64,000 bases of DNA from Nitrosopumilaceae archaeon (lineage in GTDB: Archaea > Thermoproteota > Nitrososphaeria > Nitrososphaerales > Nitrosopumilaceae): assembly GCA_965214835.1 (NCBI GenBank), contig CBDCCK010000002.1, positions 2,784,001 through 2,848,000 of the forward strand, given 5' to 3'. This document shows positions 9,872-48,990 of this stretch, in pieces. The notes under the pieces are model-generated. The model was not told the origin of the DNA and did not search any database. It worked only from the letters and a program-made list of their open reading frames with translations. Each line of letters opens with the position of its first letter. Within the stretch, counting starts at the first letter, position 1. The position numbers and the translations under genes are program-made.

Positions 9872-9979
9872 GTGCCTGAAACGCTAAAGATAATAGCAGA
9901 CGGGAAGTTCCTTATCATCTACGGGCAGAGCTATAGTTAGCGCGTGCCTGAAACGCTAAAGATAATAGCAGACGGGAAG
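9872..9979. repeat. 36-bp perfect direct repeat / 36-bp unique insert / repeat (single CRISPR-like unit)
   Basis: GTGCCTGAAACGCTAAAGATAATAGCAGACGGGAAG at 9872-9907 and 9944-9979. Confidence 0.95.
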
Positions 9980-9989
9980 ACTGCCAGTC

Positions 9990-10265
9990 ATGAACAAGAT
10001 CAAGTGCTCGCACATTCTGGTAAAAAGGCAGGGCGAGGCCCTAGAAATACTGGAGAGGATCAAAGGCGGGGAAAAGTTTGGAAGGCTGGCAAGGGAGCTC
10101 TCGACTGACTCGGGCAGTGCAAAAAGGGACGGAAACCTAGGGTATTTTGCAAGGGGCAAGATGGTAAAACCGTTTGAGGAGGCAGCGTTCAGGCTGCAGG
10201 TCGGCCAGATTTCCGGGCCCGTAAGGTCAGAGTACGGCTATCACATAATCAAGAGGCTAGGCTAG
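9990..10265 (+). CDS. pinA: Parvulin-type peptidyl-prolyl cis-trans isomerase
   Basis: CSHILVK, LARELSTD, GNLGYFARGKMVKPFEEAAF, GYHIIKR. Confidence 0.95.
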   Translation: MNKIKCSHILVKRQGEALEILERIKGGEKFGRLARELSTDSGSAKRDGNLGYFARGKMVKPFEEAAFRLQVGQISGPVRSEYGYHIIKRLG

Positions 10266-11755
10266 GTAAAATCATCGAGTCCTGTTTGCTCCTGGTTTTC
10301 CTCCAGCACCTTGGTCATCCTGGCCCCCATGCTCCTTGCAGACTCTATCTTCCGCTTCCCGATCCAATAATAGGTCTCATCAATGGTGTCCCTGGCAATC
10401 AAGACAATCAGCCTCCCGCTGTCCTTTCGTCCGGTTCTGCCCCTGCGCTGGACAAACCTGATGGAGCTTGGAACGTTGTCATAAAAAACCACCAGGTTGA
10501 CCTCTGAGACGTCAAGCCCCTCCTCGCCGACCCGGGTTGCAACCAGTACTTGGTATTGGCCGCTTCGGAACTTTTCGACGGCCTCAATCTGTGCCTTTTG
10601 TTTCAGGCCGGCCTCGCCTGCCTTTCCAATCAGGATTCCCGCACGTATCCCGTCCCGGATCAAATTCTTGTGGATTACGTCCACGGAGTCCCGATAGCTG
10701 GAAAACACAAGCGCCTTGCCCTCAAGATTCTGCAGTATTTGAAGAAGCTTGGGGATCTTAGAGTGCTCGATGCCCTTTTGCTGTGCAGAATGCGCCAGCT
10801 GAACCGCACGCGTAAAGTTCGGGTCTGTCTCAAAGAGCTCCCTTACGCCGGCCCCCTTCTTCTGCCTTGCCCGCTCGCAGAACTTCAAAAATGGGGTGAT
10901 GCCGTGGGCCTCCAGGATGCCAAGCGCATAATGAATCCGGATGGCGGTGAAAAGCGGTTTTGCAGAACGTCGGTTCTGTGCAAGCACGAACTGCCGGGTT
11001 CGAAGCAGTGCAGACAGTGATTTTTGCTTGGACAGGTCTATCCCGTTTTTTTTCAGTGTATCATATCTCTCGTCGAGTGCATTCTTTACCAGAGCCTGGA
11101 TTGTCCTGAGCTCGTCGGGCAGCCTGACGCTAACCCACCTGGTATCAGTCTCCTGGACATACGGCTTTACGTCGTCGCTTTCTTCGGTACGCTGCGCCAC
11201 GCTTGCGATTCTCAGGGTGGTCAGGATTTCTGTCGCCTTTTCCTTTTCACTGGGCAGTGTTGCAGTCATTCCCATCATCCTGGCATTAGAGCCTGCAAAG
11301 CGCCCTGCGATTCCCGAATAGGCATAGTCGCCTACGGTCCTGTGGGCCTCATCAAAGATCACCAAGGCAAACTGATCCGAGTCTACGATTCCGCGGTCTA
11401 GATCGTTTTTTGTGATTTCGGGGGTGGCGCAGACGATGCTGTTGGACCACAGCTTTTTTCGCTTGGATATATGATCCGTGCCGGTAACGACTCCGATATC
11501 ATCAAGCAGGACGTTTTCCTTGAGAAACTGATAGTGCTGGTTTACCAGGACGCGGGTCGGCGCAAGAAACAGAACCCCGCCGGCCCCCTTTTGCAGATAC
11601 TCGCATATTACCTGCAGTGCTATCGTGGTCTTTCCAAGGCCGGTGGGCAGGACCACGATACAGTTCTCAGAGACGGCCTGCCGGGCAAGGCTTACCTGGT
11701 AATCCCGCCTTTCAATGGAGTCCTTTTTCACGAACCTGTTCTCGAAATATTCCAA
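10262..11755 (-). CDS. hef: Hef/FANCM-type DEAD/DEAH helicase (no nuclease domain)
   Basis: RDYQ, LPTGLGKT, DEAHR, MTAT, EEGLDV, QRRGRTGR. Confidence 0.9.
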   Translation of the reverse strand: MEYFENRFVKKDSIERRDYQVSLARQAVSENCIVVLPTGLGKTTIALQVICEYLQKGAGGVLFLAPTRVLVNQHYQFLKENVLLDDIGVVTGTDHISKRKKLWSNSIVCATPEITKNDLDRGIVDSDQFALVIFDEAHRTVGDYAYSGIAGRFAGSNARMMGMTATLPSEKEKATEILTTLRIASVAQRTEESDDVKPYVQETDTRWVSVRLPDELRTIQALVKNALDERYDTLKKNGIDLSKQKSLSALLRTRQFVLAQNRRSAKPLFTAIRIHYALGILEAHGITPFLKFCERARQKKGAGVRELFETDPNFTRAVQLAHSAQQKGIEHSKIPKLLQILQNLEGKALVFSSYRDSVDVIHKNLIRDGIRAGILIGKAGEAGLKQKAQIEAVEKFRSGQYQVLVATRVGEEGLDVSEVNLVVFYDNVPSSIRFVQRRGRTGRKDSGRLIVLIARDTIDETYYWIGKRKIESARSMGARMTKVLEENQEQTGLDDFT

Positions 11756-11888
11756 TCAGCCTTCTAGTGGCATGGCTTTGATTTTATTCTTTTAGTGTAG
11801 CATAAAGGAAGCTATTGCTCAATTCTGCGTCAGCCTCGGATCCAAAGATCCGCTGAATATTAAATAAGGGGCGGTAAAAACCCCAACC

Positions 11889-11978
11889 ATGAACAGCGAC
11901 TTCAAGGCAATAGGGTATTCCTTGATCGGCATAATAGCCCTAGGCATAGCCTGGGGATTCTATACAGTCTACGGCTAG
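11889..11978 (+). CDS. Small single-pass membrane protein (29 aa; not in the ORF track)
   Basis: MNSDFKAIGYSLIGIIALGIAWGFYTVYG; TTAAATA about 25 nt upstream. Confidence 0.65.
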   Translation: MNSDFKAIGYSLIGIIALGIAWGFYTVYG

Positions 11979-12036
11979 TCGTTTAGATCGGTTCCCGGCT
12001 CAAATCCATATATTGCGGCAGTGGCAACTGTGCGTG

Positions 12037-12555
12037 TTGAGCACCTTTGAGAGGCCAGGCTGGGACGAGTACTTTATGCTGCAGGCAGAGCTGGCCAAGC
12101 TGCGCTCCAACTGCATAGCAAGGCAGGTCGGCGCGGTGATTGTAAGGGACAACAGGCAGCTTGCCACAGGCTATAACGGAACACCGCCTGGCGTAAAAAA
12201 CTGCTTTGATGGCGGGTGCAAGAGATGCCAGCTGCGCACGGAGGGGAAGATCAAGTCAGGGGATCTGCTTGACAGGTGTCTTTGCAACCATGCAGAGGCC
12301 AATGCAATCATGCACTGCGCGATCCTAGGCATCGAGGCAGGCGTCAAAGGGGCAATGCTGTATACGACGCTGGTGCCATGCCTAGAGTGCACAAAAATGG
12401 CAGTCACGATTGGAATCAGGAGGATTATTTGCCTTGACTCCTACCCCGAAACAGATTATGGGCTGATAAAGGAGGCAGGGGTGAAGGTGGTCACGCTGGA
12501 TAAAAACAAGATTCAAAAATGGGCACAGCAGCTAACGGGTGATTATTCAAAATAG
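12037..12555 (+). CDS. dCMP deaminase
   Basis: RPGWDEYFM, GYNG, HAEANAI, PCLEC zinc motifs; probable TTG start. Confidence 0.92.
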   Translation: MSTFERPGWDEYFMLQAELAKLRSNCIARQVGAVIVRDNRQLATGYNGTPPGVKNCFDGGCKRCQLRTEGKIKSGDLLDRCLCNHAEANAIMHCAILGIEAGVKGAMLYTTLVPCLECTKMAVTIGIRRIICLDSYPETDYGLIKEAGVKVVTLDKNKIQKWAQQLTGDYSK

Positions 12556-12557
12556 CC

Positions 12558-15104
12558 ATGTCAGTACAACAAGCACAAAGAGTAACCGAGCTGCCTCCCT
12601 CCATGCTGGTGTCTGCGACATATGACAGCAAGAACAGGTGCGCAGTACTAAAGTTCTACGAACCAGAGTCGCAGAAAATCATCCTATGGCGGGACGAGAT
12701 AGGCCACAGGCCGTACTGCTACTCAAAGCTAAACCCGGACGAGCTTGGATTCATCGCAGGCAGGAAGGATCTGATAGAAATCAAGGACGTCCGGCGAAAC
12801 GACCTGCTCAGGAGCGAGGAGATTCCGCTATCAAAGATTGTCGTAGAGGATCCGCTGGCCATAGGCGGCACTGCAACGGACAAAAGCCTGAGAAACGTAA
12901 TCGAGACGTGGGAGTCAGACATAAAATACTATGAGAGTTATCTTTACGACAGATCGTTGATCATCGGCAAGTTCTACGAGATCAAGGACTCAAAGGTGAC
13001 CCCGCACGACATGGAGATCCCCCCGGAGGTAAAAGAGTCGCTCAAGACCCTGCTGTGGGAGAATATCTCAGATGAGAAGATGGTAGATCCCGGGCAGTTT
13101 GAGGAGTACATTTCAGACTGGGCGGATCTGCTCAACCAGCCCATTCCAAAGATGAGACGGGTGAGCGTGGACATAGAGGTAGAGGCGGAGGTCGGCCGCA
13201 TTCCGGATCCCAAGCTGGCCGAAAGGAAGGTTACGGCCATAGGGTTTTCAGGAAGCGACGGGTTCAGGGAGATCCTTGTGCTAAGGAAAGCGGGGGTTCA
13301 GCAGGGGGCCAACGACCTGGACTTTGAGCCAAGGTTCTACGAGGAGGAGGACGAAAGACAGATGATACTGGACGCCTTTGGCCTGCTCAGGGAGTTTGCG
13401 TTCGTCCTGACGTATAACGGGGACGAGTTTGATCTGCCGTACCTTTTCAATCGGGCAGAGAGGCTGGGAGTCAAGACGGAGGACAACCCGCTGTACATGA
13501 TGAGGGACTCGGCCACCCTAAAGCACGGCGTGCACATCGACCTGTACAGGACCCTGTCCAACAGATCCTTTCAGATCTACGCATTCAGCCACAAGTATTC
13601 GGACTTTTCGCTCAACAGCGTCTCAAAGGCGCTGCTGGGCAAGGAGAAGATCGACTATGGCGTGGAGTTAAACGACCTGACGCTTTACCAGACTGCAAAC
13701 TATTGCTACAACGACGCGCTACTGACCTACGAGCTTGCAAGCTTTAACAGCGACCTGCTGATGAACCTGCTAGTCGTAATCGCAAGAATCGGCAGGATGC
13801 CGATTGACGACATTGCAAGGCTCGGGGTGTCGCAGTGGATTCGCAGCCTGATGTATTACGAGCACCGCCAGAGAAACGCGCTGATTCCAAAGAGGGAGGA
13901 GCTGCAAAAGCACTCGGCTGCGGTGTCCTCAGAGGCCGTAATCAAGGACAAAAAGTACCGGGGCGGCCTGGTCGTGGATCCCATGGAGGGAATCCACTTT
14001 AACGTCACGGTGATGGACTTTGCAAGCCTGTATCCGAGCATCATCAAGGTGCGAAACCTGTCCTATGAGACGGTAAGGTGTCCGCACGAGGAGTGCAGGG
14101 CAAACACCATCCCGCAGACCAGCCACTGGGTATGCACCAAGAAAAACGGGATGACGGCCATGCTCATAGGCTCGCTACGGGACCTTAGGGTAAACTACTA
14201 CAAGAGCCTGTCAAAAAGGGAGTCGATTACAGAGGAGCAGAGGCAGCAGTACACGGTCGTCAGCCAGGCGCTCAAGGTCATCCTCAACGCCAGCTACGGT
14301 GTAATGGGCGCAGAGATATTCCCCCTGTACTTCCTGCCTGCCGCGGAGGCCACGACTGCCATCGGGAGGCACATAATTTTGCAGACGATTGAAAGGTGCA
14401 AGGAGTTTGGAGTCGAGGTGCTATACGGCGACACGGACTCGCTGTTCATCAAGAACCCCACGCAGGAGCAGATCGACAGGGTCATCAAGCAGGCAAAAAA
14501 GGATCACGGTGTTGACCTTGAGGTGGACAAGGAGTACAGGTATGCGGTGCTGAGCAACAGAAAGAAGAACTACCTGGGGGTCACAAGGTCAGGCAAGGTG
14601 GACGTCAAGGGGCTGACGGGGAAAAAATCCCACACGCCGGGGTTCATCAAAAAGCTGTTTTATGAGCTGCTCGACGTGCTATCCGAGGTCGAAACAATAG
14701 AGGGCTTTGAGCGCGCCAAAAAGGAGATCAGCGACAGGATTGCAGGCTATGCAAAAAAGGTGCAGGAAAAGGAGATCCCGCTTGAGGATCTGGCGTACAA
14801 CGTCATGATAAGCAAGGCGCCCTCAGAGTATGTCAAGACGGTCCCCCAGCACATCAGGGCCGCCAAGATGCTAGAGTCCACAAGGGAGATCAAAAAGGGT
14901 GACATCATATCGTACATCAAGACGCTGGGCAAGCCAGGTGTAAAGCCAGTCGAGCTTGCAAGGCAGACCGAGATTGATCCGAAGAAATACCTCGAGTTCA
15001 TGGAGTCGACACTTGACCAGATAACGTCCTCCATGGATCTTGACTTTGACACCATACTGGGCAAGCCAAAGCAGACCGGCCTGGACCAGTTTTTCTGGAA
15101 CTGA
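12558..15104 (+). CDS. polB: Family B DNA polymerase (PolB1)
   Basis: Exonuclease DIE, YNGDEFD; polymerase DFASLYPS, KVILNASYG, YGDTDS, KKNY. Confidence 0.97.
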   Translation: MSVQQAQRVTELPPSMLVSATYDSKNRCAVLKFYEPESQKIILWRDEIGHRPYCYSKLNPDELGFIAGRKDLIEIKDVRRNDLLRSEEIPLSKIVVEDPLAIGGTATDKSLRNVIETWESDIKYYESYLYDRSLIIGKFYEIKDSKVTPHDMEIPPEVKESLKTLLWENISDEKMVDPGQFEEYISDWADLLNQPIPKMRRVSVDIEVEAEVGRIPDPKLAERKVTAIGFSGSDGFREILVLRKAGVQQGANDLDFEPRFYEEEDERQMILDAFGLLREFAFVLTYNGDEFDLPYLFNRAERLGVKTEDNPLYMMRDSATLKHGVHIDLYRTLSNRSFQIYAFSHKYSDFSLNSVSKALLGKEKIDYGVELNDLTLYQTANYCYNDALLTYELASFNSDLLMNLLVVIARIGRMPIDDIARLGVSQWIRSLMYYEHRQRNALIPKREELQKHSAAVSSEAVIKDKKYRGGLVVDPMEGIHFNVTVMDFASLYPSIIKVRNLSYETVRCPHEECRANTIPQTSHWVCTKKNGMTAMLIGSLRDLRVNYYKSLSKRESITEEQRQQYTVVSQALKVILNASYGVMGAEIFPLYFLPAAEATTAIGRHIILQTIERCKEFGVEVLYGDTDSLFIKNPTQEQIDRVIKQAKKDHGVDLEVDKEYRYAVLSNRKKNYLGVTRSGKVDVKGLTGKKSHTPGFIKKLFYELLDVLSEVETIEGFERAKKEISDRIAGYAKKVQEKEIPLEDLAYNVMISKAPSEYVKTVPQHIRAAKMLESTREIKKGDIISYIKTLGKPGVKPVELARQTEIDPKKYLEFMESTLDQITSSMDLDFDTILGKPKQTGLDQFFWN

Positions 15105-15108
15105 TTGC

Positions 15109-15396
15109 ATGTACCTGGACGAAGGCACGCTTACCCTAGTCGGAATTCTTGCGGGAATCCTGATTTTGTCTGGATGGGTGCAGCAGATCATCAAGGGATA
15201 CAGGACAAAAAGCCTCAAGGACGTATCCAGGTACCTGATGTCCCTGATTGCAGCAGGGGCGGCGCTGTGGCTGGTCTACGGGATAGAGGTGGAGGACGTC
15301 TACATCATAGGCACGAACCTTGCGGCAATAGTGCTGATGGTAATCGTGATTGCCATGAAGCAAAGGTACGACAGGAACATCCGGATCAAGGATTAA
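15109..15396 (+). CDS. SemiSWEET/PQ-loop-family membrane protein
   Basis: Three hydrophobic segments; QIIKGYRTKSLKDVS...LWLVYG. Confidence 0.8.
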   Translation: MYLDEGTLTLVGILAGILILSGWVQQIIKGYRTKSLKDVSRYLMSLIAAGAALWLVYGIEVEDVYIIGTNLAAIVLMVIVIAMKQRYDRNIRIKD

Positions 15397-25578: not shown

Positions 25579-26663
25579 AGAAGCAATCCGTAATTAAATT
25601 ACGAGTGGCAGGTTGCAGTTGTTTTCTGCCGTGTTTTTCAGGCCACAGCAGCTATCCGTTCCAGTATCCTCAGGTTGACCAGCCCGCACACGATACTGTT
25701 GGCCAGATCGTACTTTCTGAGCCTGTTTCTGTACTTGTAGCTCATTATCTTGAATGTCTTGACCCTGCGTATGCCATTCTCCACGTACACCCGTATCTTT
25801 GAGTGTGTTCTGTTGTACTCTTTTTCATCGTCGGTCAGCTTGCCGCCAGGACTCTTCTTGATTGGAAGTATAACCTTCGTCCCTGCATCGATGTGCTGCG
25901 CACCCTGGTATCCGCGATCCATATAGTGCCGCAGCTCCTCGCCGTCCTCCTCACCGCTCCAGAACGTGGGATGCTTCATCTGGTATATCTTGATGTCGTT
26001 TACGCGCCCCGGCGAGTGCGGGGTCTTGTGCACTATGGCACCGTGTATGTTGACCGTATACTGGACCTTGGCCGTGTGCGTGCCTGCCTTGCCCGAATAG
26101 TGCGACTTTTCCATGTCCTTTCTCTTGGGCCTGTTTGTGGGCTGCTCGGAGGCGTCAGTCAGGCACACCATCCCCGGGAAGATCTCGGCCAGCTCCTCGA
26201 CTGAGGAGATCCTCTTGGAGTCCTTGTAGATCTTCTCGGGGATCGGCAGGCATTGTTTTAGCAGGGGCTCAGTCAGGCTTATGGAGCGCGAGACCGACGC
26301 CTGTCCTATACCGAACATGGCGCCAGCCACGTCCTGGGAGACGTACGTCCTGTAGTAGAACAAGACCAGCAGTACGCGGTTCCTCAGATCCAGGGCAAAG
26401 GGCCTGCCTGCGCCTATATCCCGCACACGGTCGGGCCTTGAGAGCCTCTTCTTCTCGGTATCTGGAAATTTCTTTTGCACCTCGGTACACAGCTGGTCAA
26501 ACTCTGCCTCGGTCATTCCTGCAAACATCCGGAACGTCCGTGGGTTTTTTGTCAGTCTATCGATCAAACACATGATTTGTACATGGTTTTACAGGTATTT
26601 TGATCCGTCAGGCATAGATTAGTGCCCAAGTGGGTCAAAATCTGCTAATTAAGAATCGCTTCT
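25579..26663 (-). mobile_element. IS5-family element, copy 2
   Basis: Same ends as copy 1; 3-bp TSD CTG. Confidence 0.93.
25638..26573 (-). CDS. IS5-family transposase
   Basis: Differs from copy 1 by one V/I change. Confidence 0.93.
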   Translation of the reverse strand: MCLIDRLTKNPRTFRMFAGMTEAEFDQLCTEVQKKFPDTEKKRLSRPDRVRDIGAGRPFALDLRNRVLLVLFYYRTYVSQDVAGAMFGIGQASVSRSISLTEPLLKQCLPIPEKIYKDSKRISSVEELAEIFPGMVCLTDASEQPTNRPKRKDMEKSHYSGKAGTHTAKVQYTVNIHGAIVHKTPHSPGRVNDIKIYQMKHPTFWSGEEDGEELRHYMDRGYQGAQHIDAGTKVILPIKKSPGGKLTDDEKEYNRTHSKIRVYVENGIRRVKTFKIMSYKYRNRLRKYDLANSIVCGLVNLRILERIAAVA

Positions 26664-26803: not shown

Positions 26804-27166
26804 TACCTGTGGTATGTCAGGGACAGGGACTCGCACACGTTCAACCTGGACGCCGTAAGGGATCAAAACGTGGCGTATCCGGGGCAGAAAAAGAACGGCA
26901 GGCCAAGGTGCAACCCGCTTGGAAAGAATCCGACAAACGTGTGGGAGATTCCGAAGGTCACCTCCGGCAGGAACAGGTCGTCCAGGGAGCGTGCAGACCA
27001 CATCACAAATGCATTCATATTGTTTCTTGGTATCCGGGGCAGGAACAGGTCGTCCAGGGAGCGTGCAGACCACCCTGCGCAGTTTCCACTTGCCGTCCTG
27101 GACCGCATAATAAGGGCCTCAAGTGACTGCGGCGACCTTGTCTTTGATCCGTTCATCGGCTCTGGC
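26804..27166 (+). pseudogene. N6/N4 DNA methyltransferase (beta class), C-terminal fragment
   Basis: LWYVR...FNLDAVR...GKNPTNVW...HPAQFP...VFDPFIGSG. Confidence 0.85.
26966..27073. repeat. 36-bp repeat / 36-bp insert / repeat inside the MTase frame
   Basis: GGCAGGAACAGGTCGTCCAGGGAGCGTGCAGACCAC at 26966-27001 and 27038-27073. Confidence 0.95.
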
Positions 27167-27673: not shown

Positions 27674-30331
27674 ATGAAGTCGGTATACGCATTTGAGGAG
27701 GCAGACAGCAAGAACAGAATGCTTCTAGGCGGAAAAGGCGCCGGACTAAGCGAGATGACCCGGCTAAAGCTGCCGGTGCCACCGGGGTTTACCATCACGA
27801 CTGAGGTCTGCGCCAAGTATTACGCAAACGGTCAAAGACTGCCAAAGGACGTGATGCCCTCAGTGATGAAAAACATTGAAAAAATAGAGAAAAAGACAGG
27901 CAAGAAGTGGAACTCCGCCAAGAATCCACTGCTGGTCTCGGTGCGATCCGGTGCGGCAATATCGATGCCGGGCATGATGGATACGATTTTGAATTTGGGG
28001 CTAAACGAGGGAACCGTCAATGGACTGGCCGAGCAGACGCAAAATCCGCGTTTTGCCTGGGATTCATACAGGCGGTTTGTCCAGCTGTTTGGAAAGGTGG
28101 TGTTTGGTGTAAATGATGAAAGGTTCGAAGACGTGCTGGACTCGGCAAAATCCAGGCAGGGCACAAGGGACGACGGCCAGCTAAGCGTCGAATCGCTAAA
28201 GAAGGTCGTTGCGCAGTACAAAAGGATCTGTGAAAAACACGCCAAAAGGAGATTCCCAGACTCGCCTGACGAGCAGCTGAGCCTGTCAATCGAGGCGGTA
28301 TTCAAAAGCTGGATGGGCGAGAGGGCAGTCGTTTACCGTGAGAAAAACGGCATAACCAGGGACGTTGCAAGCGGAACCGCGGTAAACGTCGTGGCAATGG
28401 TATTTGGCAACATGGGCGACGACAGTGCCACAGGAGTCGTATTTACAAGAAACGGCCACAACGGCAGAAAGGAGCTGGAGGGCGAATACCTGATCAACGC
28501 GCAGGGAGAAGACGTTGTTGCAGGAGCAAGAACGGGGAAAAACGTATCCCTACTCAGAAAGGAGATGCCAGAGTCATATGACGAGCTAAACAAGGCATGC
28601 GCAAAGCTGGAAAGGCACTTTAGGGAGCCGCAGGACATCGAGTTTACCATAGAGCAGGGAAGGTTCTACCTGCTGCAGACAAGGGCCGCAAAAATGAGCG
28701 CCATGGCGCTGGTAAAGACGTCAGTTGACATGGTAAGGGAGAAGCTGATTGACAAGAACAGGGCACTCATGAGGATACCTGCACAGCAGCTAGAGGCACT
28801 GCTGCACAGGACGGTGGACGAGTCAGGGGTCAAGGACTTCAAGAAGCTGTGTGTGGGAATCGCCGCCTCGCCGGGGGCCGCAAGCGGGACTGCGGTATTT
28901 GACGTAAAAAAGGCAATAGAGCTCGGAGAGGCAGGAAGGAGGGTCATCCTGATCAGGCGGGAGACAAAGCCAGAGGACGTTCCGGCGTTCTTCTCATCAG
29001 AAGGCGTCCTGACCAGCCTGGGCGGCAAGTCATCACATGCTGCAATCGTCTCAAGGGGCATGGGAAAGCCGTGCATAGTGGGATGTGCGGATCTGAAAAT
29101 AGACTATGACGGCAGCAGGTGCACGGCAGGCGGGGTCACCGTAAGGGAGGGCCAGACGGTATCCATCGACGGCAGTACGGGCGCAGTATACATAGGCAAA
29201 GTCCCCACGGTGGAGCCAAGGGTCACAAGGGACTTTGAGCAGATCCTAGACTGGGCGCAAGGGGCAAAGGTTCTGGGGGTCAGGGCCAATGCAGACACGC
29301 CGGAGGCCGCAAGGCTTGCACGGAGGTTCGGTGCAAGGGGTATAGGACTGTGCAGGACCGAGAGAATGTTCAACGCAGGCGACAGGATCGGACTGTTCGT
29401 CGACATGATCATGGCAGACGGCACCGACGAGCGCGCCAGGATCCTCAAAAAGCTGGGACGGCTGCAAAAAAGCGACTTTGTCCAGATCCTGAGGGCAATG
29501 GAGGGCCACGAGGTGACCATCAGGCTGCTTGATCCCCCGCTGCACGAGTTCCTGCCAAACCCGGAGGAGCTGGCAGAGAAAATCCGCAAGCTAAAGGCAA
29601 AAAAGGCGGCAGGGGAGCTCAAAAAGGCAGAGGTCGTCCTGAGACGGGCAAGGGAGCTGGCAGAGGTAAACCCGATGATGGGGCACAGGGGGGTCAGGGT
29701 CGGAATCACGTATCCGGAGATCTACGAGATGCAGATTCGCGCAGTATTTGAGGCGCTTGTGGCACTGACAAAGAGGGGGACAAGAGCGCACCCCCAGATC
29801 ATGATTCCCCAGATCAGCAGCGTCGCAGAACTGGATCACATCAAGAAGATTTATGACAAAATAAAGAGCGAGGTCGAGGCCAAAAACAGGATGAGGCTGA
29901 CGGTAAGCTTTGGGACGATGATCGAGGTCGTGAGGGCCGCACTGACTGCAGGCGAGCTTGCAGGAACGGCGGAGTTCTTCAGCTTTGGCACCAATGATCT
30001 GACGCAGGGAACGTTCAGCTTCAGCAGGGAGGACGTGGAGGGAAAGTTCCTTCCCGAATACATGGAAAAGGAGCTACTAGAGAAAAGCCCGTTCCAGTCA
30101 ATTGACGTAGGCGGGGTCGGCAGCCTAATGAGGATGGGAATCGCCCACGGACGAAAGGCCAGAAAGGGCATGGAGGTCGGAATATGCGGGGAGCACGGTG
30201 GGGATCCAAGCTCGATTGAGTTCTGCCATGATGCGGGCCTAAGCTACGTCAGCGCCTCGCCGCACAGGATACCCATTGCAATCGTCGCCGCAGCACAGGC
30301 GGCGATCAAGAAGCCGGCGGGACGAAAATAG
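27674..30331 (+). CDS. ppdK: Pyruvate, phosphate dikinase
   Basis: LLGGKGAGL, VSVRSGA, NAQGEDVV, GGKSSHAAIV, FSFGTNDLTQ, GICGEHGG. Confidence 0.97.
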   Translation: MKSVYAFEEADSKNRMLLGGKGAGLSEMTRLKLPVPPGFTITTEVCAKYYANGQRLPKDVMPSVMKNIEKIEKKTGKKWNSAKNPLLVSVRSGAAISMPGMMDTILNLGLNEGTVNGLAEQTQNPRFAWDSYRRFVQLFGKVVFGVNDERFEDVLDSAKSRQGTRDDGQLSVESLKKVVAQYKRICEKHAKRRFPDSPDEQLSLSIEAVFKSWMGERAVVYREKNGITRDVASGTAVNVVAMVFGNMGDDSATGVVFTRNGHNGRKELEGEYLINAQGEDVVAGARTGKNVSLLRKEMPESYDELNKACAKLERHFREPQDIEFTIEQGRFYLLQTRAAKMSAMALVKTSVDMVREKLIDKNRALMRIPAQQLEALLHRTVDESGVKDFKKLCVGIAASPGAASGTAVFDVKKAIELGEAGRRVILIRRETKPEDVPAFFSSEGVLTSLGGKSSHAAIVSRGMGKPCIVGCADLKIDYDGSRCTAGGVTVREGQTVSIDGSTGAVYIGKVPTVEPRVTRDFEQILDWAQGAKVLGVRANADTPEAARLARRFGARGIGLCRTERMFNAGDRIGLFVDMIMADGTDERARILKKLGRLQKSDFVQILRAMEGHEVTIRLLDPPLHEFLPNPEELAEKIRKLKAKKAAGELKKAEVVLRRARELAEVNPMMGHRGVRVGITYPEIYEMQIRAVFEALVALTKRGTRAHPQIMIPQISSVAELDHIKKIYDKIKSEVEAKNRMRLTVSFGTMIEVVRAALTAGELAGTAEFFSFGTNDLTQGTFSFSREDVEGKFLPEYMEKELLEKSPFQSIDVGGVGSLMRMGIAHGRKARKGMEVGICGEHGGDPSSIEFCHDAGLSYVSASPHRIPIAIVAAAQAAIKKPAGRK

Positions 30332-30359
30332 TTTAAACCAGCACCCTGCAAGTACCATC

Positions 30360-30911
30360 ATGCTTCCAAGGATCGACTCGATCAAGCAGATGAGGCTCAA
30401 GGCAGGAATCACGCAGAAAAGGCTGGCAGGCATGGCAGGGGTCAGCACCTCGATGATAAACCAGATAGAGTCAGGCAGGAGCAGGCCGAGCTATGAGACG
30501 GCAAAAAGGATCTTCGACAGCCTGGCCACGCTCGAGGGCGAGTCGTCATCACATACGGCGGGGGACTTTTGCAGCAGGGATATTGCAAAGCTCAGGCCGG
30601 GCAACACCCTGTATGATGCAATCAAAAAGATGCACGAGCTCTCAATCAGCCAGATTCCGATATTTGACGGGGCCGAGCCGGTAGGCCTGGTCTCAGAGGA
30701 CGGCATCGTAAGGCACCTCTCAGACGGCGGGACGGAGCTGAAAAAGGCCAAGATCTCAGACGCCATGGACTCGATCCCGCCGATAGTGGACTTTGAGACC
30801 CCTGCAAACGTACTGGTTCCCCTGATCAGGTACTCAAAGTGCATCCTTGTCTCAAGGCAGACGAGGGTCATCGGGATAATCACGGCATCAGACACCCTGA
30901 GGATGGTATAA
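30360..30911 (+). CDS. XRE-HTH plus tandem CBS-domain transcriptional regulator
   Basis: ITQKRLA...INQIESG; ISQIPI; GIITASD. Confidence 0.9.
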   Translation: MLPRIDSIKQMRLKAGITQKRLAGMAGVSTSMINQIESGRSRPSYETAKRIFDSLATLEGESSSHTAGDFCSRDIAKLRPGNTLYDAIKKMHELSISQIPIFDGAEPVGLVSEDGIVRHLSDGGTELKKAKISDAMDSIPPIVDFETPANVLVPLIRYSKCILVSRQTRVIGIITASDTLRMV

Positions 30912-30925: not shown

Positions 30926-31037
30926 GTCTGCGCGGCTCCAGCCGGCAGGACTGCTGTCCAAGCCTCAGGGCAGCCGAGCAGAGACTCAAGACACTTAATG
31001 TCTGCGCGGCTCCAGCCGGCAGGACTGCTGTCCAAGC
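30926..31037. repeat. 38-bp repeat / 36-bp insert / repeat (period 74)
   Basis: GTCTGCGCGGCTCCAGCCGGCAGGACTGCTGTCCAAGC at 30926-30963 and 31000-31037. Confidence 0.95.
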
Positions 31038-39832: not shown

Positions 39833-41899
39833 GTACAACTTCAGGTCCTTTTTATACTGACAGTCAAACATTTTTGGGCAGCATCTTATGATCAGATGCC
39901 CCTGCGAACATGGCTGAACATCAGACATTTGTGATCAGACATTGCAGGTTTGGAATTTACGGGAGTGACATAATATCGGCATCTTGGTCAAAGAATTTCG
40001 ATGGAAATCTTTTTTGATCTTGCCTGTCTGATGTAACATATGGACTCCAAAGCCGTGCTTGCACGCTGTACGGATCCTAGAAAGGCACTTGTCATGATCA
40101 TGGAGCAAGATGAGAAGATCTCCGGGCTGGAAAAAGAACTCTCTATTGTCAAGAAGGAGAATGCGGATGTCAAGAAGGAGAATGCTGAGCTTCAGGCAAG
40201 GCTTGCCCTGTACGAGAGTCCCAACATGCCCACGTCCACGCCGTCATTATACAATGATGCCAGAAAAAAGTTCAGGGAGAAAAGGGGCGAGGATCCCGGC
40301 GGCAGTCCCGGCGATGCGGCCAGGGGCAAGAAACGCGGCCCTCCGTGCGGACACCATGGTACATCGCACGGCAACCGGCCATCCATGACATTAAGGTACG
40401 ATCTTGATTTCAAAATATGCCCAAAGTGCAACATCCAGTTACGGATGCTCAAGCCGATCCACAAGCTTGTCAACGATCTGGACGGCTCCATGCGCATGAT
40501 TACTGCCAATGCCATCATCCAAAACGCGGTGTGTCCACAGTGCAATACCGTGCATGTCGCAGCTACCCCGTTTCTAGGCGGCACGTCACTTGGGCCCGTC
40601 TCACTCTCTCTAATCATGATGTTCTTTGAGAAGGGAAACATAGACGAGGACATTGCAGAGTACTTTCAGTATATGTTTGGATTCAAGATGGCCCCAAATA
40701 CCGTGACTGCCGCCCGGCACGCAGTGGCAGAGGCACTCCGGCAAAACATGATACAATGCATACAGACATTCATTGCGGGCAGGCCGTGGATACAGATGGA
40801 CGAGACCGGCTTTAAGCGCGGCGACGGACACACGGGGTACGTCTGGGTGCTCAACTGTGCGGGGGCGTGCTTTGTGGTCTTTGCAGATTCCCGGTCCTCT
40901 GAGGTACTGCACACGCACTTTGGATGGCTGGATCCCAGGGTTCCCATAGTCGTCGACGGGCTGGCCCAGTACAAGCTGTTCTTTGAGATAATCCAGAGGT
41001 GCTGGAGGCACCTTCTGGCGTATGCAGAAAAGCTTGCAGTAAAGATGCCCGAAGGCGATGATGGGAAAAGGTATGACTTGCTGCTGGAATTTTACAGGGA
41101 GGTAAAAAAGATCAAAGACGCTTGCGTCGCTTACATACATGGAGCTTTCAAGGGAGGCATACAAAATAATCAGCCCGTATGAGGACGATCACGTGCGTAC
41201 ACACCTGCTAAACGCCATACCCAACATGTTTACGTTTCTAGCGCGTCCGGGAATGCCGCCGCACAACAACGATACGGAGCGATGCATACGCGACGGGATC
41301 ATACCACAGCGCAATGCGCGCCACAAGATCGTAACTGACGGGGGAAGAAAGACGGCTTCTGCGCTGCTGACGTTCTCGATGACATGCCGCAAGCAAAACA
41401 TACATCCTGCCGGTGGACTCTTGAAATACCTGCGGGATCCGGGCTGGGATATCTTTGCAGGGGCCAAGGATGACGCGCACCTGCTGTCCTCGCTTGTCAA
41501 TACGGACGGTACAAGATACAGTGTCTTTGAGTGTCCCGGGCCGCCGCCGGTGTGGCCGCCTGCAGCAGGTGCAGGCAAGGGGGCGGTACGCTGGAACCAG
41601 ACGGCCGTCGTACCCGTAGCCCCGATGGCACTTTGATCCGTCTGGCGCCTACGGGACGGCGTAACCCGTAGCCTCATATCGAAGGATCCGGCTGAATCTG
41701 CCAGTCAACGGCACCGAATGCAACAGTTTCTGATTGCCTGCAGGTGCCGTCTGTCAATGTGTTGCCTGCACGGCGCCGGTTCTGGCATGTACAAAGGATG
41801 TGTGGTGATGCAACGGGTCTGTCACAACGGATGCGGAAGGATCAAAAAGTTCCGGACAAAAAGTTCCCTGGGCGCTTTAAATAGGACCTGAAGTTGTAC
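39833..41899 (+). mobile_element. IS66-family element A, copy 1 (2067 bp)
   Basis: Perfect 17-bp TIR GTACAACTTCAGGTCCT; 8-bp TSD GCCACGCA. Confidence 0.93.
40040..41636 (+). pseudogene. IS66-family transposase split into two frames near 41104-41117
   Basis: QMDETG, VDG, QRCWRH in ORF1; PHNNDTERCIR in the +1 frame ORF2. Confidence 0.85.
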
Positions 41900-43978: not shown

Positions 43979-43984
43979 GCCCAG

Positions 43985-44902
43985 TCACCCCAGTATTGAC
44001 CTCGAGATTCTGTCTCCTGCCTCAAGCGGGTCTATCTTCCCAGATTTTAGTTTTTTAAGACAACTGGCGTATGTCTTGCTAGAGCCAAGCATGGTATCGA
44101 TCTGTCCTGCTATGTTATTTAAAACAATATCGCGCAGCTCGCCCTCCAGACGGATTGGATCCCTTTCCTTTTTCTCCTTTTTCTTGGCAGCCATCATCCC
44201 CTTGAGCTGCCTTGCAAACTCCTTGATTCCCCTGTTTTTCTTGGCAGATGTCTTTAGGATTACGGGTTTTTTCTGGGAGGTCCCGATATGATCCAGGACT
44301 GCATCGAAGAGCTGGGATGCCCCATCCAGGTCAGACTTGTTTACAATGTACATGTCCCCGATCTCGGTCAGTCCTGCCTTGATGGCCTGGATGCTGTCGC
44401 CGGTATGGGGATTGAAGACGACTACGGTGACATCGGCGATGTTGGAGATCTCTACCTCCGTCTGCCCGGCCCCCACGCTCTCTATGATTATCGGGTTGAA
44501 TCCCGCATATTCCAGGACGCGGATGCTGTTGCGCAGCGAGCGCGATACGGCACCAGCAGAGCCGCGGGATGCAATGCTCCTGATATAGGTTCCCGAGTCC
44601 GTCGATTCGGTCATCCTGACCCTGTCGCCCAAGATTGCTCCGCCGGTAAGATGGCTGGTGGGATCGACGGCAAGGACGGCAGGCTTGGTCTTGAGCCTTC
44701 GAAGCTCGACTGTGGTCTTGTCGATAAGCGAGCTTTTCCCGGCGCCGGCAGGACCGGTTATGCCTATTACGATGGACTTGCCGGGGCCACGGAAGATCTC
44801 CTTTAGGAGCCTTCTGGTTCCCTTTTGATCGTTTTCGACGACGGAGATTGCCCTGGCAATTGCGCCGCGCCTTCCCCTCTTTAGATCGGCTAGCATGTCC
44901 AA
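43985..44902 (-). CDS. meaB: Methylmalonyl-CoA mutase-associated GTPase MeaB
   Basis: GITGPAGAGKSS, AVDPTS...GAILGDRVRM, ESVGAGQ, NKSD. Confidence 0.95.
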   Translation of the reverse strand: MDMLADLKRGRRGAIARAISVVENDQKGTRRLLKEIFRGPGKSIVIGITGPAGAGKSSLIDKTTVELRRLKTKPAVLAVDPTSHLTGGAILGDRVRMTESTDSGTYIRSIASRGSAGAVSRSLRNSIRVLEYAGFNPIIIESVGAGQTEVEISNIADVTVVVFNPHTGDSIQAIKAGLTEIGDMYIVNKSDLDGASQLFDAVLDHIGTSQKKPVILKTSAKKNRGIKEFARQLKGMMAAKKKEKKERDPIRLEGELRDIVLNNIAGQIDTMLGSSKTYASCLKKLKSGKIDPLEAGDRISRSILG

Positions 44903-44949
44903 CAGTTATGGTGGATTTTTACTGCAATAAAATCTTGCAGGTGATCCGG

Positions 44950-45357
44950 TCACAGGTAGCTGTATATCACCGCAGGCTTGGGCTCTCCGGGGGCTCGGAT
45001 CTCTGTCTTTAGTCCAACCTTTCCCAGCTCCGGATGCTCTATTACAAACGTGACAGGATGCACCTTCCATCCGTACTTTGGGGGCAGTCCGAAGGCGACT
45101 TCCTCGACAAAGCTGGTCTCTTCATAGTATCTCTGAAACGTCTCATCCATTCCCAGAACCTCCATTGTTACAGATGTCGACTGGCTGCCCGTATCCTCAA
45201 AGGAGATCCGCACGAGTCCCTGCTCCTCATGATATGTTGCATCAACGACAAACGTGCCGCCAAGATCCGGCGGTCCGCCTGCGCCTGCAACAAGAAACAG
45301 CACCGCAAGGCCGGTGACGACTATGATGCCAAAAACAGACATTGTCTTTGCAATCAT
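44950..45357 (-). CDS. Conserved thaumarchaeal exported protein
   Basis: N-terminal TM/signal; PKYGWKVHPVTF; within the backbone operon. Confidence 0.75.
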   Translation of the reverse strand: MIAKTMSVFGIIVVTGLAVLFLVAGAGGPPDLGGTFVVDATYHEEQGLVRISFEDTGSQSTSVTMEVLGMDETFQRYYEETSFVEEVAFGLPPKYGWKVHPVTFVIEHPELGKVGLKTEIRAPGEPKPAVIYSYL

Positions 45358-45363
45358 ATCAGA

Positions 45364-47862
45364 TCAGCTGCTTTTCAGATCCTCTTTGACGGATGCAAGG
45401 AACCTTGAGCGTATGCGCATTCGCTCCAGGGTCTGCTCCAGGGTTCTGTCGGTTCCCGGGGTGGGGTTCTTTTTGAAAAACGACCGGATCTCCTTTTCTG
45501 CCTTTGCATCTGCTGCCTGGCCAATGCTTGCAACGATTCTGTTGAACAGTAGATTTCCGTGCCCTACCTTTTTGCTGAGCTTTGTCCAGTTCTTCTGAAG
45601 CCAGGGCCAGAGGATTTCCCTTCCGTGCGGATTGGCCGCAACGCGCATTATTGGCAGCTGCATGTTCTGCGAGCGCACCTCCGGTGTTTGTGAGAAGTTC
45701 AGCGTCCTGACAAGCAGCCTCCTGTCCTGGAAGTTGCACAGTGCGCCCAGGAACCGGAGCTTTTCCTCCTGGGTCTTGGTCTTTTTGAAGAGATCCGTAA
45801 GCTGCGCATGTGTCTTAGAGTCGCCGTTCCATGCCACAGCGGAGAACACGGCCTCACGCAGGTCTGGGTGCAGGGAATGCGGCCGTTTCAGGAACGCCCT
45901 GAACCTGGATTCGGCCTCCCCGGCTACCTGCTCGTCGCCCAGTCTTGCCAGGGCAGAGATCGTAAAGCCTCGAAGCAGTGCATCGGTGTGTCGGTCAGAC
46001 TTTTTGGGATTCCAGCCCAGCCGGTGCAGCAGGTGCCTGAAATAGTTCATGGCATGACCCCGGATCACCTCAGATGTGGGCTCCCAGTAGGTCATCAGAA
46101 ACAACGAGTAGATGTTGCGCGCTACGTTTACGGATACAAGATAGCTGTCCTCCTCAAAGTATGCGTCGCTAAAGTCAAGATAGTTTCCCACGGTATCGTC
46201 TCCAGACATGCACAGTGCAAACAGGTCGTTTTGGACTGCCCACCGGTCAACGTGGGGGATTCGCTTTTGATCTACTAGCATCTTCAGATCAAGGAGGATT
46301 CCGGCATCATACTTTGTGCGGTAGAATCCGTTTCTGCCCCGATTGACTATAGGGGTGGAGTTTTCGAGAACCCTGATGTTCTTTGATTTCGAGGTCAAAA
46401 GATGGCCCTGGTGCCGGGTGCCAGCAGAGACGTCGACTGGGATCTGCCACAGTCCCCTTTGGTGCCTTTTGTCAGGCTCTAGCAGGAACCGTTTTTGCCG
46501 GAGTCTGACACCGGTCCCGTTCTTGCTCACCTCAAGCACGGGAAAGCCCGGCTGTCTGAGCCAGCTGTTCACCATGGATTTTACAGGCTTGCCTGAGGCC
46601 TCGCCGATTGCCGACCATAGATCGTCGCCTGCGGCGTTTTGGTACTTGAACTGCGACAGATATCTTCTCAGGCCCTTCCTAAAGCTGGGCTCGCCCACGT
46701 AGTTCTCAAGCATCCGCAGGATGCAGCCGCCCTTGTCATAGGATATGGCATCGAAGATCTCCCGGATCTGGGCAGGGCTGTCTACCTTGACATCGATGGG
46801 ATGGGTGGACTTGAGGGAGTCAAGATCCATTGCAGTGTTCATCGCGTCTTCGACGAACTGATCCCACAGTTCCCACTCCGGATAGAACATGTCAACGAAC
46901 TTTGTTGCCATAAACGTGGCAAAGCTTTCGTTGAGCCACAGGTCGTTCCACCACCTCATGGTCACGAGGTTTCCAAACCACTGGTGTGCAATCTCGTGTG
47001 AGATGACCTCCGCAATGAACTGCTTTGTCCTAGTAGAAGAGGTCCGGGGATCATAGAGCAGGATCGTCTCCCTGAACGTGATTGCGCCCCAGTTCTCCAT
47101 GGCGCCTGCCGCAAAGTCTGGTATTGCAAGAAGGTCGAGTTTTGGCAGTGGGTACTTTATGCCGAAATACTTCTCATAAGATGCAAGCAGTCTCTTTGCA
47201 AGATCCAGTGAGAACCTGCCGTGGGCCTTGTTTCCCCTGGTTGTGATCACCCGGACGCTTGTCCTGCCGGATCTGCCCGATATGTATTCAAATTCTCCCA
47301 CCCCGAGATAAACAAGGTAGGTTGACATGACAGGAGTGGTGTCGAACCGGTGGCGGGTCTTCCTGCCAAGCTTCCTCCTGGAGACTGCCGGCATGTTGGA
47401 GACTGCCATGTAGTTGCTTTCAGCAGTTATTGCAATGTCAAAGGTGGCCTTTGCCTGGGGCTCATCCCAGCAGGGAAACGCACGCCTAGCATCGGCTGCC
47501 TCAAACTGGGTTGTGGCCATGTACTTTGTCTTAGAGCCGACCTTGTACTGGCTGCGATAAAATCCCAGCAGCCGGTCATTTAAGACCCCGGCAAAGTCAA
47601 TCTCTAGGACAAACCTGCCCCTGACCGGGGATCCCGTTGTTATGTGAAGCTGCTCGGATTTTTCATCCAGCCGGGTCTTGGCCCGTGTCTTGGAGTCTCC
47701 ATGCACGATATGGCAGGACTTGATCTTGAGCTCTGCTGCATGGATCGATATTTTGCTGGTAGGCCTGCTGGCAACTGCCGTAATGACTTCCCTGCCGGCA
47801 AACGTGAAGTTTTTGAGGTCTGGCTCAAATTCCAGATCATAGTTTATTGGAGATACCAGCAT
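45364..47862 (-). CDS. M1-family aminopeptidase (puromycin-sensitive/Tricorn-factor-like)
   Basis: TQFEAADARRAFPCWDEP, GAMENWG, HEIAHQW...LWLNE; probable ATG at 47862 (the longer ORF start lies in a MITE). Confidence 0.93.
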   Translation of the reverse strand: MLVSPINYDLEFEPDLKNFTFAGREVITAVASRPTSKISIHAAELKIKSCHIVHGDSKTRAKTRLDEKSEQLHITTGSPVRGRFVLEIDFAGVLNDRLLGFYRSQYKVGSKTKYMATTQFEAADARRAFPCWDEPQAKATFDIAITAESNYMAVSNMPAVSRRKLGRKTRHRFDTTPVMSTYLVYLGVGEFEYISGRSGRTSVRVITTRGNKAHGRFSLDLAKRLLASYEKYFGIKYPLPKLDLLAIPDFAAGAMENWGAITFRETILLYDPRTSSTRTKQFIAEVISHEIAHQWFGNLVTMRWWNDLWLNESFATFMATKFVDMFYPEWELWDQFVEDAMNTAMDLDSLKSTHPIDVKVDSPAQIREIFDAISYDKGGCILRMLENYVGEPSFRKGLRRYLSQFKYQNAAGDDLWSAIGEASGKPVKSMVNSWLRQPGFPVLEVSKNGTGVRLRQKRFLLEPDKRHQRGLWQIPVDVSAGTRHQGHLLTSKSKNIRVLENSTPIVNRGRNGFYRTKYDAGILLDLKMLVDQKRIPHVDRWAVQNDLFALCMSGDDTVGNYLDFSDAYFEEDSYLVSVNVARNIYSLFLMTYWEPTSEVIRGHAMNYFRHLLHRLGWNPKKSDRHTDALLRGFTISALARLGDEQVAGEAESRFRAFLKRPHSLHPDLREAVFSAVAWNGDSKTHAQLTDLFKKTKTQEEKLRFLGALCNFQDRRLLVRTLNFSQTPEVRSQNMQLPIMRVAANPHGREILWPWLQKNWTKLSKKVGHGNLLFNRIVASIGQAADAKAEKEIRSFFKKNPTPGTDRTLEQTLERMRIRSRFLASVKEDLKSS

Positions 47863-47934
47863 GGGATTTGGCTCTTTGTACGGCCTTAAGTAGATTGGCG
47901 TCTGAGGTGTTTGGCCAGAGTTTTTCCAGAAATC

Positions 47935-48122
47935 GCAAGAGTTTGCCTCCCAGGTAGCACTGCTGGCCAAGGCCTTGATCGCCATGCCCGCCACGCCATA
48001 TTTTCGGTGGATAAACCCCTACCACCAAGATGCAAGAGTTTACCCCGCCCCCGAGATGCGGCGTGGCAGGCGTGATCATAAAGACTCCGGCCAGCAGTGT
48101 CACCTGAAGGGTAAACTCACAC
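47935..48122. mobile_element. Two adjacent, oppositely oriented MITE family B copies (47935-48022, 48032-48122)
   Basis: GCAAGAGTTT(G/A)CC starts; internal CACTGCTGGCC / GGCCAGCAGTG. Confidence 0.7.
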
Positions 48123-48235
48123 CGAGATAGTGAAAGAGGTATTATGCCAAGATCTACTATGAACGTCATGAGGGTGTGCCTCTGGCTGCTATGCCAGATC
48201 TACCCACGGCGTTCCGTCTAGCAGCACCGGGGATC

Positions 48236-48327
48236 GTATGTGGTCACCTGCCCCTATCAATTAGGCATGAATTGGCATGTACAATGTGATTTTCGTGCCT
48301 AGATAGCAAGGGGACGTGACCACGTAC
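48236..48327. mobile_element. MITE family A
   Basis: GTATGTGGTCAC / GTGACCACGTAC; internal sequence is the reverse complement of 21524-21616. Confidence 0.85.
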
Positions 48328-48329
48328 GG

Positions 48330-48990
48330 TGGTATTGGAGAGCACCCTTCTGATCGAGTACCTTGTCAGGGAGTACGGCCTAAATGGGGGCCGCCAGACA
48401 GCTGCGCGATGAGGTGGACGTAACGTTTGTGTTCTGCGGCAGCGGCTAGGACGAGTCGGAAGCCAAGTACACCGAGGAAAACGACCTCTCCAACGTGAGA
48501 TTCTTGGGACTTGTGGGATCCCAGCAGCTGCTAGAGTGCATGAAGAGTAGCGACGTGTGCCTCGGACTGTTCCAGACAAACAGCAAGATGGAGGGATCAC
48601 TGCCCAACAAGGTCAACCAGATCCTGTCATCTGCCAAGCCCCTGATTACGGCAAGCACGTCTGCAGTGCGCGAGAGGACTGGCAGGCAACACCCCTAGGA
48701 GCACAAAACCAACCCCTGATTACGGCAAGCACGTCTGCAGTGCGCGAGAGGACTGGCAGGCAACACCCCTAGGAGCACAAAACCAACCCCTGATTACGGC
48801 AAGCACGTCTGCAGTGCGCGAGGCTGGCCTAGTCGACAAGGAGAACTGCATGCTAGTGCAGTCCGACTCGCTAGGGAGCTGGCCCGGTGCACCTTACAGC
48901 TGAGGGACGACGGCGGCCTTCGGAGGTACGTGGCAATGCAGGAGCAACGACACTATGTAGAAAGACTGTCAGCTGATCGGTCGGGCAGGC
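48330..48990 (+). pseudogene. GT4-type glycosyltransferase remnant
   Basis: NVRFLGLV...SSDVCLGLF...LPNKVNQILSSAKPLITAS...DKENCMLV; stops and frameshifts. Confidence 0.75.
48639..48822. repeat. Three 36-bp repeats separated by two identical 38-bp inserts
   Basis: CCCCTGATTACGGCAAGCACGTCTGCAGTGCGCGAG at 48639, 48713 and 48787. Confidence 0.95.

Follow-up and report, generated by a model that had tools for sequence, protein, structure and literature searches.

What kind of process leaves a short insert between two perfect copies of an ordinary genomic segment, repeatedly and within a single archaeal genome? This question is raised by a 64,000-nucleotide stretch of DNA (the window; C2:2784001-2848000) from a Nitrosopumilaceae archaeon (assembly GCA_965214835.1), the 3.22 Mb genome of which is represented by two contigs (C1 and C2), with a chromosome of ~3.2 Mb. 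A preliminary description of the window had reported four perfect duplications around short inserts, and exact direct repeats were re-found at all four positions (Table 1): 36 bp with a gap of 36 bp at sites 1 and 2, a maximal exact repeat of 38 bp with a gap of 36 bp at site 3, and a 36 bp repeat in three copies with a gap of 38 bp at site 4. It was also borne out that neither the repeats nor the inserts are related among the four sites. Judging from the sequence evidence, the four sites very probably represent off-array spacer integration, presumably performed by the Cas4/Cas1 and Cas2 proteins of the organism's own type I-G CRISPR-Cas system.

For two of the sites, the previously proposed boundaries were revised. 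The maximal repeat at site 3 is indeed 38 bp long, but this site is best partitioned into a 36 bp target and a 38 bp insert, and not as 38 bp duplicated around 36 bp, because the 'GC' in front of the insert is also found at its chromosomal source (C2 980452-980495). Site 4, which had been described as one unit, does contain a duplication around a 38 bp insert, but was shown to consist of three target copies and two identical 38 bp inserts, corresponding to a 74 bp tandem of 2.5 copies. Its second unit would best be explained by one 74 bp target plus insert having been doubled afterwards through slippage or unequal exchange.

Outside its CRISPR arrays, C2 was scanned for direct repeats matching at no fewer than 29 of 30 nt, with at least 15 non-matching bases between the copies. 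The numbers of near-exact repeats with a period of 71, 72, 73, 74, 75 and 76 were 3, 23, 10, 4, 9 and 3, respectively (52 in total), while periods 70, 77 and 78 each yielded zero or one, and this sharp peak at periods 71-76 is not due to chance. From 62 raw candidates (periods 69-80), 13 tandem, low-complexity or coding repeats were dropped, and with site 4 added 49 candidates were obtained. Six more were then dropped, namely four period-79 repeats internal to insertion sequences (IS), one of the two copies present in a duplicated region, and unit 1736693, a member of that IS-internal repeat family for which a filled paralogous copy exists. The resulting catalogue comprises ~43 independent solo units on the 3.2 Mb chromosome, window sites included; as it rests on curation, a few of the 43 may be false members, for example the two units of period 69 and those whose repeats are shortest. 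A looser scan yielded 15 further, uncurated candidates in a decayed state (28-32 of 36 positions identical; periods 72-75). The excluded IS-internal repeat mimics a repeat-spacer-repeat arrangement and belongs to the element itself: an IS-like family with an internal 42-45 bp direct repeat of period 79 (72-75 in diverged copies) was observed at C2 1308253, 1624023, 2343411 and 2692095, and also at C2 1736693, 608098 and 2707231.

The 43 units exhibit periods of 69 (two units), 71 (three), 72 (16), 73 (nine), 74 (five), 75 (six) and 76 (two), implying insert lengths, in the same order, of 33, 35, 36, 37, 38, 39 and 40 nt. The exact repeat measures 36 bp in 15 units, 37 bp in 11, 38 bp in three, 39 bp in two, 35 bp in three and less in nine; 34 of the 43 are thus in the range of 35-39 bp, and this spread is what a fixed 36 bp duplication would yield once extended by chance and altered by a small number of subsequent mutations. 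The genome-wide length distribution, proposed earlier as a check, therefore peaks at 36 for the repeat and at 36-37 for the gap. The 'repeat' differs from unit to unit, being unrelated native sequence that is often coding. With inserts that are mutually unrelated and a duplication of 36 bp rather than a short one, the units resemble neither IS nor miniature inverted-repeat transposable elements (MITEs). They also differ from functional CRISPR arrays, which possess a leader or promoter, several repeats and a processable repeat, and no leader-like sequence beyond 4-5 nt was detected next to the 15 units with unambiguous boundaries. The earlier suggestion that neo-arrays are being seeded holds in the sense of one-spacer units, but none of the 43 has gained a second, different insert.

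The lengths of duplication and insert equal the repeat and spacer lengths of the resident array. This main array (C2 2482178-2492954) contains 148 identical 36 nt repeats, separated by spacers of 35 (seven spacers), 36 (45), 37 (54), 38 (18), 39 (16) and 40 nt (four), a comparison that the preliminary description had asked for. It is preceded by genes for a Cas4/Cas1 fusion (Cas4g/Cas1g; 566 aa; NF049935, 754.8 bits, cut-off 560) and Cas2, followed by the leader, and downstream of the array lie an IS630 transposase gene (between the array and cas3g) and genes for Cas3g, a Cas8g2 relative, Csb1/Cas7g and Csb2. Profile matches were obtained to TIGR02621 (630.3 bits, cut-off 400), TIGR02570 (140.7 bits, cut-off 38) and TIGR02165 (210.7 bits, cut-off 45), and the Cas8g2 relative matches TIGR04106 with 100.8 bits (E = 1e-28), below the cut-off of 125. 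The locus thus represents a type I-G system, complete in appearance, with one intact set of adaptation genes, and the array-linked fusion is the single Cas1 match in the whole genome. For the gene now assigned as the Cas8g2 relative, a search for the Csx17 family gave no match anywhere, positive controls included, and is uninformative.

With respect to the locus as a whole (C2 2479.0-2500.7 kb), the coding style of the effector genes seems to be shifted markedly towards AT relative to the genome. A second array, with eight variant repeats and a leader resembling the main one, is located at C2 135.8-136.4 kb, adjoining VirB4- and VirD4-like genes, possibly as part of an integrated conjugative element. 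In this small array, spacers 4 and 5 are identical, and spacer 7 has a match, with two mismatches, at a distance of 5.5 kb.

That the units are insertions is evident from empty sites, i.e. a single target copy without insert, which were found for eight of the 11 units tested, including all four window sites (site 1 in part); none of these 11 was seen filled in another genome. At site 3, the corresponding region of the same-genus genome G002 (flanks 93-94% identical) has one target copy with the native flank directly after it. For site 1, the G002 alignment starts from within target copy 2 and contains one copy, the DNA upstream being diverged. Unit C2 2445029 corresponds to a single, insert-free target with clean alignment boundaries in G002, and so does unit 1921439, the flank matches of which overlap by 32-34 nt on three G002 contigs. 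Paralogues provide the remaining cases: a methylase at C2 121183-121475 for site 2, C2 954804-955320 and 1059661-1060114 for site 4, one empty paralogue for unit 2366624, and nine other copies of one IS, all without insert, for unit 1625426. The empty alleles that the preliminary description had called for are thus present in a related genome as well as in paralogues, whereas for units 204691, 1033730 and 3127496 no homologue spanning the site was found. An assembly artefact is barely credible in the light of these data, as it would have to account for 43 distinct, unique units of one fixed geometry, for exact boundaries at orthologous and paralogous empty sites, for inserts with sources flanked by a protospacer-adjacent motif (PAM), and for a unit that is kept in both copies of a duplicated region (1921439 and 1966990).

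Twelve of the 43 inserts match distant chromosomal loci over their full or near-full length. The sources lie tens of kilobases to megabases away, and the inserts are therefore not copies of nearby sequence; had they been such copies, this would have spoken against integration, as named in advance in the preliminary description. The trinucleotide TTN, the type I-G PAM, is located directly 5' of the source in seven of the 12 cases, compared with a null expectation of 0.119 (P = 1.6e-4), which answers the earlier question regarding a shared PAM. Among the window sites, the insert of site 3 has a source without adjoining TTN (32 of 36 nt aligned with one mismatch; 91% over 44 nt), and for the inserts of sites 1, 2 and 4 no other source was found in this genome. 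According to the available part of PMC6547450, the I-U/I-G module of Geobacter sulfurreducens likewise combines a fused Cas4/Cas1 (acting with Cas2), an upstream TTN PAM and predominantly 36 bp spacers; integration was scored there only at a leader-repeat construct, whereas the sites described here are off-array.

Errors of repair or replication, by which template switching or templated insertion at breaks would have doubled local DNA and copied filler into it, could be invoked for those 12 inserts that copy other chromosomal loci, and for the slippage-type tandem duplication at site 4. However, a fixed 36 bp duplication combined with 35-40 bp inserts in ~43 cases is not expected from such errors, nor is TTN beside the sources, which are moreover distant, and the genome-wide length peak also argues against them; we consider this explanation highly improbable.

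The sources of the captured fragments are not evenly placed. Four of the 12 (900193, 902215, 904405 and 906409) fall within 6.3 kb (simulation P = 1.4e-5), in a cluster that adjoins cdc6/orc1, genes for both subunits of DNA polymerase D (PolD) and repeats resembling origin recognition boxes (ORB), and the maximum of the cumulative GC skew (~880 kb, 20 kb bins) lies ~20 kb from it. A provirus was considered for the 900-906 kb cluster and rejected, since PolD, cdc6/orc1 and the ORB-like repeats mark it as the origin. C2 899.8-902.8 kb, where ORB-like direct and inverted repeats occur upstream of cdc6/orc1 with the genes for the large and small PolD subunits flanking, is the probable replication origin, and its GC content dips to 45-49%. 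In Pyrococcus furiosus, experiments similarly revealed oriC as a hot spot for self-derived spacers, which arise preferentially near oriC and transposons, as stated in the available text of PMC5737086.

The presence of self-derived inserts distinguishes the solo units from the main array, of whose spacers none (0 of 147) matches C2 outside the array, one matching the 13 kb contig C1. Compared with the 12 self matches among 43 solo inserts, this difference is highly significant (Fisher P = 4.7e-9). Most simply, this could be read as frequent capture of self DNA, which self-targeting would remove from the array but which would survive in silent off-array units. The match to C1 involves array spacer 41 (C1 6366-6401; 36 of 37 nt, with the mismatch at the first spacer base) and lies in a large GT2 glycosyltransferase gene. 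C1, which was considered as a possible virus or plasmid targeted by this spacer and may be either chromosomal or episomal, further encodes a protein with a LamG domain and an IS66 transposase.

For the 15 units with unambiguous boundaries, the junctions were analysed for target-site preference. The dinucleotide GG occupies positions -2 and -1 on 11 of the 30 sides (background 0.07; P = 3e-6). The sides have the consensus CAGG|, and the first target base is G or C on 28 of 30; AGG flanks seven units versus 0.6 expected. This flank motif is reminiscent of a leader end, because the two real leaders end in ACGGG| and GCAGT|. An expectation-maximization (EM) search for a full-length motif over flank, target and flank was over-fitted, and only junction statistics were therefore used. 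The hexamer GCAGAC (or its complement), highlighted in the preliminary description, is present in all four window targets, but is not supported beyond them, its occurrence in three of the 39 others (~1.3 expected) not being significant; its total of 7 of 43 (~1.4-1.55 expected) includes the four discovery sites and is not significant among 2080 hexamers.

Taken together, these observations are consistent with the following mechanism. The Cas4/1-Cas2 complex would capture ~36-38 bp fragments of the cell's own chromosome, notably from beside the replication origin and from IS copies, and of other DNA, many of them picked beside a TTN PAM. Such fragments would normally be joined at the leader-repeat junction and occasionally to ordinary DNA, where two strand transfers on opposite strands, 36 bp apart at a distance set by the enzyme, are presumed to take place. 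Gap repair would then double the 36 bp target around the insert, yielding target-insert-target. Site choice would be loose, guided by CAGG just outside the target and G/C as first base, similar to real leader ends. Since what is duplicated is not a CRISPR repeat, guide RNAs are probably not produced from the units, and self-derived inserts, absent from the array, would therefore be tolerated there. The net effect would be an insertional mutation of 71-76 bp, which adds codons in frame or causes a frameshift when it falls in a gene. The Cas1-type integration that had been proposed for the window is thus supported by the dimensions, the cas genes, the PAM-flanked sources, the empty sites and the abundance of units.

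A number of observations weigh against this interpretation. The integrating role of Cas4/1-Cas2 is predicted, its enzymatic action included, and all units are known from assembled contigs. No source was found for 31 of the 43 inserts; in viral contigs, the inserts of sites 1 and 2 gave no exact match, and neither did that of site 2 in metagenome contigs, exact matching being insensitive. Five of the 12 sources have no TTN at the exact boundary, although TTN is one base off in three of these. The target bodies are barely repeat-like (12.4 versus 11.7 matches of 36, z = 2.3), from which it follows that the 36 bp spacing would be set by the enzyme and not by the repeat sequence. The insert orientation defined by the PAM and that defined by the flank motif agree in two units and disagree in two, i.e. 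no orientation rule emerges, and spacer-end composition of the array, tried as an orientation marker, showed no useful bias. Furthermore, in two same-genus genomes with a related Cas4/1, a 400 kb sample of each contains only one candidate unit (G004) or one doubtful candidate (G003).

The poor resemblance of the targets to repeats, the sufficiency of a short motif for site choice and the unruled orientation of inserts relative to the PAM would also fit a non-Cas integrase of the 'ruler' type, or a cryptic family of mobile elements, that generates 36 bp duplications around short cargo. Such an agent appears very unlikely, as the inserts have neither sequence nor ends nor open reading frames in common, their lengths and those of the duplications match the resident array, the sources bear the I-G PAM, and the Cas4/1 fusion beside the array is encoded by the sole gene of the Cas1 family. 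Casposons, which also employ a Cas1-family integrase, staggered cuts and target duplications, span several kilobases, are bounded by terminal inverted repeats and duplicate ~14-15 bp of their target, unlike the unrelated inserts of 33-40 bp without terminal repeats described here, in a genome whose only Cas1 is the array-linked fusion. Off-array integration by the Cas4/1-Cas2 complex therefore remains our preferred explanation.

In Escherichia coli, over-produced type I-E Cas1-Cas2 supplied with oligonucleotides was reportedly shown by Nivala, Shipman and Church in 2018 to integrate off-target, and the seeding of neo-CRISPR loci is said to have been proposed on that basis. The outcome there and here is the same, namely a spacer-sized insert between copies of repeat-length ordinary DNA, away from the array. 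The present case differs in that the system is a natural archaeal type I-G one, with ~43 fixed events, some of which disrupt genes, with self sources that are flanked by a PAM, and with empty sites that were verified. Natural evidence for off-target integration was called circumstantial, and limited to two species, in the available part of 10.1101/148544. For P. furiosus Cas1-Cas2, in vitro off-target integration at repeat-like plasmid sites is described in the accessible portion of PMC6698737. As far as these P. furiosus sources indicate, both systems have in common that self spacers favour oriC and transposons and that off-target sites reveal integrase recognition, whereas the P. furiosus data derive from laboratory-culture arrays or in vitro reactions and ours from off-array scars in a wild genome, with targets that are barely repeat-like. 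In a limited collection of literature, no report was found of a natural genome with dozens of such units, nor of such units in ammonia-oxidising archaea. A natural genome with ~40 off-array integration events therefore appears to be new, off-target Cas1-Cas2 integration itself being known from experiments. What appears to be new is not the mechanism but its scale in nature, its occurrence in an archaeon with a type I-G system, the load of mutations and the record of self-capture before any filtering.

The units are unevenly spread along the chromosome (Kolmogorov-Smirnov P = 4e-5), with 16 of the 43 located within 350 kb upstream of the cas locus (C2 2.13-2.48 Mb) compared with ~4.7 expected, and 400 kb blocks of this genome hold between one and 13 units. 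The crowded region also contains the GC-skew minimum, and cas-locus proximity, the replication terminus or tolerance of insertions may account for the crowding. When the units are removed in silico, 26 of the 43 sites fall in open frames with a length of 150 aa or more; several units represent in-frame additions that keep long frames open (e.g. 812 to 836 aa), while others split frames. A selective bias towards in-frame insertion was not established, as periods divisible by three account for 24 of 43 units versus 42% in the array (P = 0.052).

Related Cas4/1 fusions were mostly found in records of metagenome-assembled genomes (MAGs) of Nitrosopumilus, Nitrosopumilaceae and Cenarchaeum, and also in Caldilineaceae and Dehalococcoidia MAGs. 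G004 encodes an intact fusion (65% identity) with an array of 36 nt repeats, and G003 a fusion with an internal stop. It is conceivable, although we hold it to be slightly on the doubtful side, that the adaptation module is unusually promiscuous in this lineage, in which case heritable insertions and the inactivation of genes would in large part stem from spacer integration. The cause may be the position of cas4/1-cas2 behind a ribosomal-protein operon or a weak leader-guiding host factor. In the former case, read-through over-expression would underlie the high unit rate, a hypothesis only, which is based on the finding that cas4/1 begins 618 bp after the genes for L22, S3, L14, L24, S4e, L5, S8 and L6 (the last of these being the nearest), and that no ribosomal-protein genes lie near the G004 cas locus within its sample.

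The units imply a measurable cost of CRISPR adaptation beyond autoimmunity, namely the insertional mutation of genes. From ~40 natural targets, both the intrinsic ruler of the integrase, which measures 36 bp even where no repeat is present, and the minimum that it prefers in a site, CAGG|, can be read. Off-array units would log capture before filtering by interference, and thus allow the long-standing question of how self and non-self are told apart during naive adaptation to be tested in an archaeon that is uncultured. They also document the first step in the de novo birth that has been proposed for CRISPR arrays. If the module is promiscuous as suggested, the scars would constitute an unselected natural log of captured DNA, self DNA with an origin hot spot among it, as well as raw material for new arrays, site 4 being already at three 'repeats'.

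The four window sites and two in-window copies of a captured sequence are listed in Table 1. Site 1 lies just upstream of a gene for a parvulin-type peptidyl-prolyl isomerase (9990-10262, PF00639). At site 2, the insertion of 72 bp into a DNA methylase frame (PF01555, 79 bits), which had been recognized in the preliminary description, preserves the reading frame without introducing a stop and adds 24 codons, contributed by the insert and the second target copy; as only profile positions 99-194 of 221 are matched, this methylase may already have been truncated by an IS beforehand. Site 3 lies between a gene with helix-turn-helix (HTH) and CBS domains (30276-30908) and a 1984 aa frame. At site 4, the 148 bp insertion shifts the frame of a glycosyltransferase-like gene, but the earlier statement that its removal restores the expected protein holds only in part, since stop codons also lie upstream and the gene is a pseudogene regardless of the insertion; both fragments, being too short, lack a Pfam match.

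Table 1. Positions within the window of the target copies and inserts at the four sites, and of sequences matching the insert of a solo unit elsewhere on C2
Feature	Position	Strand	Remarks
Site 1 target copy 1	9872..9907		36 bp, identical to 9944-9979
Site 1 insert, spacer-like	9908..9943		36 bp; no genome source
Site 1 target copy 2	9944..9979		G002 alignment begins inside; single copy there
Site 2 target copy 1	26966..27001		36 bp, within N6/N4 DNA methylase frame
Site 2 insert	27002..27037		36 bp, in frame, stop-free
Site 2 target copy 2	27038..27073		Followed by CCTG (CAGG on the opposite strand)
Site 3 target copy 1	30926..30961		36 bp, AAGG just before
Site 3 insert	30962..30999		38 bp, boundary set from source
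Site 3 target copy 2	31000..31035		Single-copy counterpart in G002
Site 4 target copy 1	48639..48674		36 bp, in glycosyltransferase-like pseudogene
Site 4 insert copy 1	48675..48712		38 bp; no other genome source
Site 4 target copy 2	48713..48748		Exact repeat
Site 4 insert copy 2	48749..48786		Equals insert copy 1
Site 4 target copy 3	48787..48822		Paralogues single-copy, insert-free
Protospacer copy for solo unit C2 2950434	41376..41411	-	Inside IS copy, TTC 5'
Second protospacer copy for unit C2 2950434	63509..63544	-	IS-borne, TTC 5'

Several other repetitive or mobile features were observed in the window. A gene for a DDE_Tnp_4 transposase (25638-26573) is located directly upstream of the methylase fragment of site 2, and a MITE-like element of ~88 bp at 48240-48330 has dozens of copies in the same-genus genome G002. 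A 42 bp tandem repeat block at 61362-61616 recurs at more than ten other loci on C1 and C2, probably inside a multi-copy element. Long runs of imperfect 156 bp (52-codon) repeats occupy 53400-58320, and a period of 156 is also the prevailing one at numerous further loci of the genome (69 hits), which suggests a large family of giant repeat proteins.

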